Below are positions 1,927 to 11,232 of a DNA stretch of 48,005 bases, piece by piece; the stretch's first letter is position 1, and each line of letters begins with the position of its first letter. A program made the position numbers and the translations under genes. Source of the stretch: Myxococcota bacterium (lineage in GTDB: Bacteria; Myxococcota_A; Polyangia; JAAYKL01). The stretch is taken from the NCBI GenBank assembly GCA_025453525.1, contig JALOQD010000001.1, forward strand, positions 1 to 48,005, written 5' to 3'. The notes under the pieces are model-generated. The model was not told the DNA's origin. It saw only the letters and a list, made by a program, of their open reading frames with translations, and made no database searches.

Positions 1927-4900
1927 CTATGGGCTGGTGAGGGTGATGTCGTCGACGTACATCCCTCGGAAACGATTGGTTCCGTTGCTGACAAACCGGA
2001 ACCGGAACTGGAATGCACTCGACATGAGGCTGGACACGTCGGCCGTGTAGCTCACCCACGTCGGGGTGCCTGGCCAGGTGCCACCGGTACTGCCGCACCA
2101 GCGTTTGTTGGTGTTGTCTGTATAGATAGGCGCGGTGTTCACTGGAACCCAGGAGCTGCCCACCTTGGCCTCGAGCACACCCCAATCGTACCCGCAATTC
2201 GTCGCGGGCGAACCGGCCTCTATCTGGAAGGCCATGCGGAAACGGAGGGTCACGGTGCGATCGCTGCAATTGGAGATGTTCTTTATCGGCGATGTGGCGC
2301 TGATGTTCTGATTGTGGTTATAAGTGTCGTCCAAGTCGGTGGCCAGCACCCTCGCGCCATTAAAGAGCCCAATCTCCCACTCGCCCTGGCGCGTCCAGTC
2401 GCTACCGCTCGTACCCTCGAAGTTCCAGGCGGCCGTGTTGAGCTGCTGTGCACACAGGTTGTTCAGAATGACCCGAGCCGGCCGGCAGCAACGGAAGCCC
2501 AGGTTGGGCATGCGGAAAGTGGCCTGGGCTGCCCAGAAGTCGAAGCCGCAGGTCATGCCGCCCGCGAGATCGTTGTAGGAGCCACCACGAACCTCGTAGG
2601 CCATGTCCGAGCCAATGGTGCGGCCGGTCCAGGTCCACTCCTCCACGTTGCCCGACAGGTCGAAAACGTCATCCGCGGGCCAATCGGCGATGCAGGAGCT
2701 GGCGAAGCCCGCACCCACCAAGTGATCCCAGGAGCCAGAGTAGTCGTGACCATTGCAGGTCGCCGGGTTGTAGGTGTTGCTATACGGATAAACGTAGGTG
2801 CCGCCGCTCGCCTTCTCGCATGTATTCTGCCACAGGACAGCTGGACAGAGATCCCAGCACGCGGAGGTCGAACAGTTGGCCGTCGGCTCGTTGAGCGCCT
2901 GACAGGCGGCGCGGGCTTCGGTCCAGTTGACCATGGTCCACGGCACCTTGGTGTCGGCCGAACAGGCCGCGGTGGTGACCACACCTGGATCGTTGTCCGC
3001 GTCCGAATCCGTGTCGTAGGCGTCGGCATCGGGCTTGGACGCTTCATAAAGGAACACGTCGTAGTTGTTACCCGCGTAGCTCAAAGATATGTACTCGAGG
3101 GTGCTGCCCGCGCCCACGCCTTCGTCCGTCCTGCCGTCGCAGTCGTTATCCAAGCCGTCGCAAGACTCCGATTGGGGCGGATTCCCATCATCGGGAATCA
3201 CGTTGCCCACGTCGCAAAGGGCCGTGCTCGCCGAGCAGCAGACAGTGGAGCTTTTCGTCGTGGCGCAGCGGAACGTTCCGGTTCGCAGGCACCCGCCTTG
3301 GCCGCGGCTGCACGCCGTGCCGTAGTCGGAGAAACCCTCGTCCGTGATGCCGTCGCAGTCGTTGTCCAGGCCGTCGCACAAATTCTCGGTGGCCTGATAT
3401 TCGGTAATGCTCGTGTATTGGCAGTTCCAGCCCGCTGCGCCGCCGCAGGTGGCGATGGACGGCACGACCGAGCACACACCCCCGGTCAAGCAGCGGCCGG
3501 GAGGCAGGTTCAGGCTTTCGTCGGTCTGGCCGTTGCAGTCGTTGTCTTTGCCGTCGCAGATCTCGGTGGTGGCATTCTCGTCGGTCTGGCCGTCGCAGTC
3601 GTTGTCCCCAGTGCCGCAGATCTCCACGCCGCCGTTGCTCGGAGTGCATTGGTAGCTGCAATCGGTGATGGCGTTGGTGCGATCGTCCACATAGCCGGGT
3701 TTGCAGGACAAGAGGATGCACGTCCCGCTCTGGCAACCGAGCTCGCCCCAGTTCAGGGGCACGGTATTGTTAGGCCACAACGAACCCATGGTGGCGCAGT
3801 TTCGGTCGCAGGCCCCGCAGTGCTCCGGGTTGAACTGCTTGTCGAATGATTCATCGATCAGGCCATCGCAGTCGTTGTCTTTGTTGTCGCAGATGGTCTC
3901 CTCGGGCACCGGGTTGCCCATGGAGTCGCATTCCACATCACCGCCTTCGTCGGTGCAATAATAGTCGCACCGCCAACCGAGCGAGTTGTCGCACACCTCT
4001 GACTTGACACCCGCGCAAGCGCTCATGCACGTCGAGGGGGGCGGCGTAAGACCTTCATCGGTCTGACCGTTGCAGTCATCGTCCAAGCCATTGCAGGTCT
4101 CCACGGTATGGCCTGTCGTGTCAGAACAACTCTGGCCCCAGTTGCCCGAGGAGATCTCCGCGCACTGATAACTTCCCTCCTGACATGAATCACTATCCGG
4201 GCCGTCGCAGGGCTGTCCGTACCACGCTGCGGCCGAGCCATTGGGGGTCAGCGCGTTGCAGTCGTTGTCCTTGTTGTCACACACATCGGCGCTGGGGATG
4301 GTGGCGTTCTTGCACACCATGGCGCCGCCGTCGCAGGTGATGGTGCCGTCGCTGCACAGACCACAGGCGCCGCCGGTAATCGGAGCTCCCGCGGCGGTCT
4401 CGTCGGTCTGGCCGTCGCAGTCGTTGTCCTGGCCGTCGCAGCTCTCGACCTCGGGGCCAATATCTCCAGCGCAATCCAACATCGCTCCAGCGCACACCAG
4501 GGTTCCCTCTTGGCAGCGTCCCTCATTGGGGCCCAGCGCGCAGACCGTGTTCACCGCTCCCGTTTGGTCGCAACCGCCGCACGTCCACACGTCATTCTCG
4601 TTGGCCGCACCGTCGCAATCGTCGTCGATGGCATCTGGCACTGTGTCGCTATCTGTGCCGTCAGAGCCGAAGTTGCAGGGATCCTCGAACGCCGCCGGAG
4701 TCCCACCGATGCAACTCACGATGCCGGCCTGGCAGACGTAAACGCCGCTACACACGCCAAAGCCGCAAACCTTTCCCACGCGCTCGTCGGCCATGCCGCC
4801 CAATCCGTCCGTGTCGGTCGCGGGCTCATCGGTCTTGCCATCGCAATCGTTGTCCAAGTTATCGCATTGCTCGGGGCTGCGCTTGATTTCAGCCTCACAG

Positions 4901-11232: not shown

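Follow-up and report, generated by a model that had tools for sequence, protein, structure and literature searches.

A giant open reading frame of a Myxococcota bacterium: a probable in-frame fusion of two neighbouring genes and a possible secretory polyprotein

Does a single open reading frame (ORF) of 3101 codons encode one protein or two? The window analysed here, a stretch of 48,005 nucleotides from a Myxococcota genome, contains an uninterrupted ORF at positions 1927–11232 of the minus strand, on which all features described below lie. It encodes 3101 aa followed by a stop codon, and collinear homologues are seen at 12 or more loci. The whole ORF is proposed here to be the precursor of two surface proteins. 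A Shine-Dalgarno-like sequence, AAGGAG (11243–11248), can be read directly 11–16 nt 5' of the ATG at 11232, within AT-rich intergenic DNA. By inspection, aa 1–30 (11143–11232) are a putative Sec (type I) signal peptide, with an h-region followed by G-Q-A/A, and relatives contain equivalents. A secreted ORF of 3101 codons had been proposed in the initial annotation, and the single open frame, the ATG with AAGGAG and the N-terminal signal peptide agree with it. The ABC genes on either side and the next two ORFs lack counterparts within ~5 kb of the gene at 14 related loci, and the bracketing by two ABC exporters is taken to be coincidental.

In the middle of the protein, at aa 1546–1607 (6412–6597), a MYXO-CTERM-type tag runs stop-free into a lipoprotein signal. 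The whole joint is 62 aa long and is not mentioned in the initial annotation of this ORF. The tag was assigned by HMM and alignment to aa 1546–1590 (6463–6597) of the 3101 aa; it is thus internal and not at the extreme C-terminus. It starts with VLATGAGGC1554-L-C1556, and the layout is GGC-x-C, a spacer of 10 aa, a helix of 16 aa (TM1, 1567–1582) and the basic loop RARRPRGQ with the Arg cluster RARRPR. The lipoprotein signal occupies aa 1591–1607 (6412–6462), with the h-region ALAWLLGALALFMSLG and the lipobox Cys1607. The segment GALALFMSLG-C1607 fits the PROSITE pattern PS00013, and the net charge of the loop is +4. This Cys is internal in the window and lies beyond the first ~35 residues that are usual for a lipoprotein precursor. 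It is followed by the conserved sequence Q-V-E-P-F-E-F and a Thr/Gly/Asp tether (aa 1608–1653; 6274–6411), and P at +4 is invariant in the alignment. Neither the window nor the related locus L027 contains an in-frame ATG, GTG or TTG from which an independent signal peptide could start. For the window, independent translation of the second half was rejected, as the frame offers just one start codon close to the joint, an ATG four codons before the lipobox Cys.

The joint is in frame, stop-free and mid-protein in 12 of 12 giant ORFs from public genomes. It is likewise in frame in eight relatives, in a paralogue in the same genome and in a complete genome of 9.07 Mb, and the independent loci with the in-frame joint, which come from different studies, number more than 25. 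Searched against 1.84 billion representatives, an HMM of the joint detects only 33 proteins, ~27 of which carry the joint internally in long proteins. A homology search with a 91-aa query of the joint alone found just the paralogue of the same genome, because the search's word index and its E-value for the whole database are too strict for 91 aa.

In other Polyangia families, the two halves are separate genes that abut or overlap. Gene 1 ends with the MYXO-CTERM tag and a stop codon, and only in these split relatives is the tag terminal. Gene 2 begins with the lipoprotein signal as its N-terminal signal, either 5 nt further on or at an ATGA overlap, and its lipobox Cys is found 15–22 codons after the start. 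Fused and split forms differ by the frame offset only. On the tree, the labels fused and split need four changes, at least two of which are forced, and one fused/split sister pair has the support of 98/96. The ORF is very probably an in-frame evolutionary fusion of two neighbouring genes, with both sorting signals retained. The domains had initially been placed in one chain; they are instead those of two fused genes, one for a vWA-MopE-stalk-MYXO-CTERM protein and the other for a MopE/FGE-like lipoprotein, whose halves are separate in other Polyangia.

Because the two forms are distinguished by a frame offset, a single indel could merge two genes, and the source assembly is a metagenome-assembled genome (MAG) of 492 contigs. 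The long ORF could then be a chimera of the assembly or the product of a one-base error joining adjacent genes. This is extremely improbable, given the recurrence of the in-frame joint at the independent loci, including the closed 9.07-Mb genome, the same joint in the second paralogue of this genome, and the lack of a usable internal start codon at the joint. The DNA of the repeats is only 60–80% identical over 56–74 nt, and repeat-driven misassembly is therefore unlikely. The ORF is genuine and not an assembly chimera. The initial annotation had asked whether it might be an assembly chimera of shorter genes: the artefact is refuted by the recurrence of the joint, while the shorter genes exist in the split relatives, as expected for an evolutionary fusion. 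It had also not recognised the combination as a described protein. As sequences they are not undescribed, since relatives are already in public databases under the generic names "MopE-related protein", "SUMF1/EgtB/PvdO family" and "MYXO-CTERM domain-containing protein".

TIGR03901 gives 14.5–15 bits for the tag in the window, under the curated cut-off of 20 bits, and matches 8 of the 13 joints of relatives at E ≤ 1 (best 1.5e-5). The PROSITE lipobox pattern fits 10 of 13 joints, and the remaining three fail its strict form. The loops of the 13 joints have net charges of +3 to +7. Across the 13 joints, at an overall identity of only 29–41%, G-x-G-G-C-x-C is invariant, and so are the lipobox Cys and Pro at +4. 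The invariance of GGC-x-C at this level of identity argues for continued selection on the motif.

Two other families of sorting signals were compared. The "lipo-invert" family (NF058595) was rejected, with 12–14 bits on the window against a cut-off of 37 bits. Its sub-threshold matches number 77 in this genome and signals, likewise under the cut-off, appear in all 14 control genomes; the matches are therefore noise from helix composition. Midcut-by-XrtH (NF033207) matches only 2 of the 13 joints, weakly (E 0.05), and the joint is not a member of it.

The modules on both sides of the joint largely correspond to those proposed initially: a vWA head whose MIDAS is intact, about 31 Asp/Cys repeats of MopE type, an FGE-like domain and a beta-rich jelly-roll tail. 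The vWA head (aa 31–322; 10267–11142) was examined by Pfam, alignment, an AF2 model, and fold and profile searches, and includes two low-confidence insertions. Pfam VWA (PF00092) gives 20.1 bits, below the gathering score of 23.8, in a match limited to the C-terminal third. The MIDAS residues of the pattern D44-x-S46-x-S48, here D44-T-S46-G-S48, as well as T206 and D246, show no variation among the 12 sequences of the relatives alignment. The AF2 model of aa 28–330 (pLDDT 66.5, pTM 0.71) matches TRAP, the PilB vWA pilin, PTMP1, collagen VI and integrin I-domains (TMt 0.45–0.68, best E 2e-5). The sequence profile of the head has one marginal match in the PDB, PTMP1 (E 0.001), and the vWA assignment thus rests on the fold and the MIDAS. 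The equivalog model of CglB (NF033757) matches residues 31–108, including the MIDAS-bearing start, with E 1.7e-4. Orthology to CglB was rejected, the score being 20.7 bits against a cut-off of 200.

The repeats are recognised by Pfam, where Cu-binding_MopE (PF11617) reaches 285.2 bits against the gathering score of 27 and 17 stretches pass. A count of the motif D-[DNE]-[DN]-C-[DNS]-G-x-x-D-E gives 30 cores, 16 before the hairpin and 14 after it. Both repeat blocks are seen by Pfam, by the motif count and as DNA repeats. Block 1 (aa 325–1251; 7480–10260) contains the 16 upstream DxDCDGxxDE cores, ~60 aa apart. It is followed by a Cys-rich stalk of CxxGxxC-type modules (aa 1252–1500; 6733–7479), which is 40–49% identical across all relatives and matches no Pfam family. 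From the motif and sequence reading, an Asp/Thr/Gly-rich tether (aa 1501–1545; 6598–6732) lies ahead of the sorting tag. Downstream of the joint, the comparison with relatives defines a post-junction region (aa 1663–1830; 5743–6246) with the first MopE core of this half and two CGxCxxxC...DGCE modules. Within the class, 132 of 301 genomes contain this region. The other 13 post-hairpin cores lie in block 2 (aa 1831–2705; 3118–5742).

The FGE-sulfatase-like (C-type-lectin-like) domain occupies aa 2706–2918 (2479–3117) and ends with GFRCC, according to Pfam, alignment and a PDB profile search. Pfam FGE-sulfatase (PF03781) matches aa 2758–2917 with 26.6 bits, above the cut-off of 23.3, and NCBI calls relatives "SUMF1/EgtB/PvdO family nonheme iron enzyme". 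If these assignments are taken literally, the C-terminal half could be an enzyme, formylglycine-generating or a related oxidase, rather than a binding arm. This is highly improbable. The Pfam match covers the profile positions 86–255 only. The best PDB matches of the family profile are the inactive SUMF2 (E 8.8e-10) and the structural lipoproteins PorK/GldK (E ~6e-7), and FGE proper is absent among the PDB matches at E ≤ 0.1. The active site of catalytic formylglycine-generating enzymes has a Cys pair, C-x4-C, shortly after GGS. With this motif as the reference, a single invariant Cys is found at +10 after G-G-S, and no pair. As it does not have the C-x4-C pair and is closest to the non-catalytic SUMF2 and to PorK/GldK, the FGE-like domain is probably a binding module.

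The tail (aa 2919–3101; 1930–2478) resembles a MAM/CBM-like beta-sandwich in HMM, profile and fold matches, and is shared with only three of the relatives compared. For the last 180 aa, Pfam MAM (15.3 bits) and InhA-like_MAM (14.9 bits) are both below their cut-offs, though the tail profile matches the MAM-like domain of InhA with E 4e-5. Foldseek matches to jelly-roll CBM/MAM folds come from an AF2 model of low confidence (mean pLDDT 49) that covers the C-terminal 412 aa; of this model, the fold matches of the tail alone are used, with caution.

How would a protein with two internal sorting signals be processed? The genome encodes the processing enzymes. The myxosortase core (NF040914, Mrt_core) is found on contig C446 with 129.7 bits against the cut-off of 100. 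LspA (Peptidase_A8) is found with 114.7 bits, at least four full-length LGT matches represent Lgt, and GspD, which stands for the T2SS, reaches 481.7 bits against the cut-off of 351.

From these components we infer the topology, both cleavages, the surface location and the adhesin function as follows. The N-terminal signal peptide would initiate Sec export, and the vWA-MopE-stalk half (aa 31–1545) would pass the inner membrane. TM1 of the tag would act as a stop-transfer segment, leaving the Arg-rich loop in the cytoplasm, and the lipoprotein signal would serve as TM2, with which export of the second half resumes. Lgt and LspA could lipidate and cut at Cys1607, yielding an N-terminally lipidated MopE-FGE-like-MAM-like protein of ~1495 aa. 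Myxosortase could cut at GGC1554, yielding a C-terminally anchored vWA arm of ~1525 aa, and a membrane hairpin of 52 aa would be released. Both arms might then reach the outer membrane or the cell surface, the MYXO-CTERM arm by way of the T2SS. In 1:1 stoichiometry, they would be long binding fibres stiffened by Ca2+ and disulfides, one with a metal-dependent vWA head and the other with lectin-like heads. By domain analogy, a long surface adhesin, as suggested initially, would be the most plausible function. The full model, a polyprotein derived from two fused, translationally coupled genes and cut into a two-part cell-surface adhesin, is considered reasonably likely.

The hairpin could also stay uncut. 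The product would then be a whole inner-membrane protein with two spans and two huge periplasmic arms. Two helices with a positive loop are consistent with an N-out/C-out hairpin, and the MYXO-CTERM score of the window is under the cut-off. Both lipid-acceptor Cys positions are, however, invariant, the split relatives encode separately sorted halves, and lineages on the tree have switched between the fused and the split state. Two arms of ~1500 aa would also fit poorly in the periplasm. An uncut protein is quite unlikely.

Alternatively, only one signal might still be used. For instance, LspA could free the lipoprotein half while the hairpin keeps the vWA half in the inner membrane, or the reverse. 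The lipobox does score better in the window, with its PS00013 match, than the sub-threshold MYXO-CTERM tag. This alternative is rather unlikely in view of GGC-x-C, unchanged across the divergent joints, and of the myxosortase encoded in the genome. A true secretory polyprotein cut by both myxosortase and signal peptidase II, with oppositely lipid-anchored arms that stay together as one two-armed adhesin, is given a little better than an even chance. As a one-base change toggles between overlapping genes and a fused gene, the two forms would be functionally interchangeable under the polyprotein reading.

If the polyprotein is cut as proposed, it would offer a natural case for learning whether internal signals can be acted on by signal peptidase II and myxosortase, and how MYXO-CTERM proteins get lipidated. 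The fused and split relatives together can be used as a Rosetta stone, which pairs an uncharacterised vWA/MYXO-CTERM protein with an equally uncharacterised FGE-like lipoprotein in many families of uncultured Polyangia. For annotation, the names "MopE-related protein" and "SUMF1/EgtB/PvdO family nonheme iron enzyme" obscure that the giant ORFs code for a pair of surface proteins, probably without an enzyme. As a tool, the 62-aa joint (aa 1546–1607) could allow the co-display of two proteins in a fixed 1:1 ratio.

Several known systems resemble parts of this protein. CglB, the gliding-motility adhesin lipoprotein of Myxococcus xanthus, is also a myxobacterial surface adhesin with vWA and MIDAS, and shows the weak local match described above; here, in contrast, the MYXO-CTERM arm and not the lipoprotein bears the vWA head. 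SUMF2 (pFGE) and PorK/GldK are the nearest solved relatives of the C-terminal FGE-fold domain, and PorK/GldK are likewise lipoproteins. In the present protein, the FGE fold caps a MopE stalk of 14 repeats, and the T9SS context is absent. Judging from its name only, Midcut-by-XrtH shares the idea of a C-terminal-type sorting signal in mid-protein that is cut by a sortase-like enzyme, although it belongs to the exosortase/PEP-CTERM system.

In the literature, the precedent consists of a single remark about internal MYXO-CTERM motifs, which are rare (PMC11980579). In that work from the Wall laboratory (mBio 2025), internal C-terminal sorting tags are regarded as functional, and MXAN_5598 of M. 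xanthus is reported to have an internal MYXO-CTERM motif, called rare and atypical. The authors suggest that two genes have fused and that the N-terminal part is processed and surface-anchored (PMC11980579). MXAN_5598 is similar to the present protein in the internal motif and the proposed two-gene fusion. It differs in its C-terminal partner, an outer-membrane beta-barrel/OmpA protein, with no lipoprotein signal described directly behind the tag, and it was described without family-wide or split-versus-fused evidence. TraA/TraB, the receptor pair for outer-membrane exchange in M. xanthus, consists of a protein that combines a variable head with a stalk of Cys-rich repeats and a MYXO-CTERM tag, and of a partner whose ORF lies downstream and overlaps (PMC11980579). 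This gene layout matches the split form of the present family, while TraA/TraB has no sequence family match to the present protein. Here a vWA head takes the place of PA14, and a MopE/FGE-like lipoprotein that of the OmpA-like barrel as partner.

The glycoprotein polyproteins of viruses (for example bunyavirus Gn/Gc, PMC7926653) have the order of elements proposed here, without homology: a stop-transfer helix, a short cytoplasmic loop and an internal signal peptide, from which host signal peptidase generates two membrane-anchored ectodomains. Here, the host is bacterial, signal peptidase II and myxosortase are the proposed enzymes, and each of the two products would carry a lipid anchor. If it is cut as proposed, the protein could be regarded as a bacterial counterpart of these viral polyproteins.

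The mega-ORF is a single minus-strand ORF of 3101 aa, running from the ATG at 11232 to the stop at 1927. It has two sorting signals placed back to back at aa 1546-1607 (window 6412-6597), a segment called here the joint or hairpin. The joint opens with VLATGAGGCLC; a spacer of 10 aa and a hydrophobic helix of 16 aa come next, then RARRPRGQ and ALAWLLGALALFMSLG-C, and QVEPFEF lies directly behind the joint. Its first part is built in the three-part form of a MYXO-CTERM tag, and TIGR03901 gives this part 14.5-15 bits, under the 20-bit cut-off. Its second part matches the PROSITE lipobox pattern, with an n-region of net +4. 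Tethers rich in Asp, Thr and Gly lie on each side. There is no stop between the MYXO-CTERM-type tag and the lipoprotein signal, and no in-frame ATG, GTG or TTG at the joint is able to begin a separate signal peptide.

The same joint is seen in frame in many relatives. All of the first eight giant relatives fetched contain the two-helix module near the middle. When one genome per prokaryotic species was scanned with a pattern, 12 loci were confirmed, all from MAGs of uncultured Polyangia/Myxococcota that came out of several studies; in all 12 the module is inside ORFs of 1,661-3,502 aa. The joint HMM found 33 matches at E<=0.001 among 1.84 billion representative proteins, about 27 of them single, full-length and within long proteins. 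Those that have a database name are listed as "MopE-related protein", "SUMF1/EgtB/PvdO family nonheme iron enzyme", "MYXO-CTERM domain-containing protein" or "FG-GAP-like". The relatives carrying a name or record title are all MAGs or metagenome contigs. The relatives are collinear over the whole architecture, from the head through repeats, stalk, joint, post-junction modules and further repeats to the FGE-like domain.

The window is the entire contig C298 (48,005 bp) of a 5.9-Mb genome in 492 contigs, 89% complete. A second giant paralogue of this genome, P0002, is located at about 21,000-29,900 on the minus strand of contig C441 (an open frame of 2952 aa, called as a gene of 2921 aa). Its joint and stalk are 90% and 86% identical to those of the mega-ORF, while its N-terminal head differs, with a vWA-like region beginning only at about aa 479. 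The complete single-contig 9.07-Mb Polyangia genome G272 encodes three fused paralogues of 1,765-2,163 aa (C1, at about 3,378,600, 4,048,900 and 9,060,700; L052 and L070), and the one read whole is 1765 aa. If cultured, G272 would be the obvious experimental entry point. The initial annotation had considered that orthologue comparison might expose the mega-ORF as an assembly chimera of shorter genes. An artefact of assembly or sequencing is hardly credible against the in-frame joint in the eight giant relatives, the 12 scan loci, the paralogue in the same genome and the complete genome. Therefore, a chimera or a one-base error is excluded for practical purposes.

In other loci the two halves are encoded by two abutting or overlapping genes (split form) instead of one ORF (fused form). 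A search with the joint and post-junction region matched 132 of the 301 genomes of the class. Matches of one type start at the MYXO-CTERM motif and correspond to the fused form, in at least 12 families; those of the other type start at the lipoprotein signal and correspond to the split form. Where split loci were read, the last part of the upstream gene encodes the stalk, GGC, the helix and the Arg cluster, and a stop follows. The downstream gene lies in another frame. It opens on Met or Val, then has a basic residue and a hydrophobic stretch that leads to the lipobox Cys, with x-[VI]-x-P-[FY] behind it, and it extends as far as the FGE-like end. At L039 a gap of 5 nt separates the pair, and the upstream gene shares its signal peptide and MIDAS-bearing head with the mega-ORF; at L060 the pair has an ATGA overlap. 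Among 30 fetched loci, 15 are fused, eight are split and seven are unclassifiable by the patterns used; a MYXO-CTERM gene abuts in all eight split loci.

In a maximum-likelihood tree built from the 330 residues that follow the lipobox Cys (28 rows; L042 was filtered out), the family of the mega-ORF forms a single fused clade (100/99). Four changes of the fused/split label are required, at least two of them forced by well-supported branches, and a fused sequence pairs with a split one as its sister (98/96). This repeated switching argues for functional equivalence of the two states. One fused homologue (G094:C47:11274-12143) has one in-frame TAG inside the joint region, perhaps a nonsense change of recent origin or an intermediate between the two states. 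Two further proteins, one of 1331 aa (P0030) and one of 2328 aa (P0028), have the same joint between modules that are unrelated: FG-GAP-like repeats, and a different head with a BNR-like C-terminus. Therefore, the joint is a fusion seam of general use and is not confined to the mega-ORF family.

The most economical reading is that the mega-ORF product would be a polyprotein. Sec export would begin at the N-terminal signal, TM1 would act as a stop-transfer with the Arg-rich loop remaining inside, and TM2 would restart export. Cys1607 would be processed by Lgt and LspA, and the GGC1554 motif by myxosortase. The products would be a C-terminally anchored vWA arm of ~1525 aa, an N-terminally lipidated arm of ~1495 aa with FGE-like and MAM-like domains at its end, and a 52-aa hairpin remaining in the membrane. 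The genome encodes a myxosortase core and a GspD secretin, both above cut-off, as well as LspA and several Lgt. That just one of the two cuts happens is unlikely, and so is an uncut hairpin kept in the inner membrane. Unusually, the genome has four or more full-length paralogues of Lgt (PF01790), on C259, C347, C373 and C41, with a single LspA match; this surplus possibly bears on which enzyme lipidates the MYXO-CTERM Cys. Three ORFs on C227, C245 and C376 end in another Cys-tail (SGSGGCNCSS...FFSSLLSLF...) nearly devoid of the basic cluster, perhaps a variant form of C-terminal sorting signal.

The domains proposed in the initial annotation were largely recovered. For the vWA head (aa 31-322), Pfam VWA scores 20.1 bits, slightly below the cut-off of 23.8. 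In an alignment with 11 relatives, DxSxS, the Thr of DG(S/G)TP and the Asp of LTDGD are all invariant and jointly form a complete MIDAS, as had been claimed. The AF2 model (pLDDT 66.5, pTM 0.71) matches the solved vWA folds of TRAP, a vWA-bearing minor pilin, byssal PTMP1, collagen VI and integrin I-domains, with E down to 2e-5 and TMt of 0.45-0.68. Of 41 related genomes, 33 have relatives of the head, many of which lie within open frames of 2,700-4,600 aa. Gly makes up 12.8% of the mega-ORF protein, Asp 10.8% and Cys 8.9% (277 residues). Cu-binding_MopE matches 17 stretches at 285 bits, and 30 DxDCDGxxDE cores were counted (16 in aa 325-1251, 14 in aa 1663-2705), close to the ~31 repeats noted before. 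As DNA, the repeats share just 60-80% identity over 56-74 nt, and the distance from one start to another is always divisible by 3. These are old modules that have diverged, and they pose no assembly hazard.

The FGE-like domain was also upheld, FGE-sulfatase scoring 26.6 bits at aa 2758-2917 (cut-off 23.3). The C-terminal family profile matches SUMF2 (E 8.8e-10), PorK/GldK (~6e-7) and CalU17; FGE proper is absent from its matches. The active site of FGE is a C-x4-C pair. The aligned family lacks this pair, as just a single Cys is kept behind the GGS motif. For these two reasons the domain reads as a putatively non-catalytic, lectin-like FGE fold, and a catalytic role is very improbable. The beta-rich tail is less firmly placed. 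Its last 180 aa give sub-threshold MAM matches in Pfam, a profile match (E 4e-5) to InhA's MAM-like domain, and matches to jelly-roll CBM/MAM folds from a poor structural model. Only three of the relatives compared have this tail, and most stop directly after GFRCC. By analogy, both arms might serve as adhesins, because of the MIDAS vWA head, the lectin-like distal domains, the ~30 Asp-rich calcium-binding-type motifs and the high disulfide potential.

AAGGAG is found 11-16 nt 5' of the ATG at 11232, in an AT-rich intergenic region. The neighbours on either side are on the opposite strand, and therefore the mega-ORF looks monocistronic. These plus-strand neighbours encode an ABC exporter with membrane and ATPase domains (1-1905) and an ABC ATPase-containing protein (11587-13158); neither is kept beside the gene in 14 related loci. 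Beyond the latter, a 529-aa ORF (13171-14757, minus strand), initially described as a lipoprotein made of 6-Cys modules, overlaps a 420-aa ORF (14246-15505, plus strand). Neither matches a Pfam family at E<=0.001.

No paper with the phrase "internal lipoprotein signal" or "internal lipobox" turned up in full-text literature searches, and there was next to nothing on the MopE Pfam motif. MYXO-CTERM proteins are reported to require the T2SS for reaching the surface (PMC11980579). The same paper reports that C-terminal tags are functional even mid-protein and proposes such use for the N-part of MXAN_5598; its one paragraph on this protein and "rare" internal MYXO-CTERM motifs is the nearest published case. 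CglB matches the vWA head weakly (20.7 bits vs 200), with no sign of orthology. The overlapping pair TraA/TraB follows the same logic as the split form. Mechanistically, the closest analogues are viral glycoprotein polyproteins with internal signal peptides.
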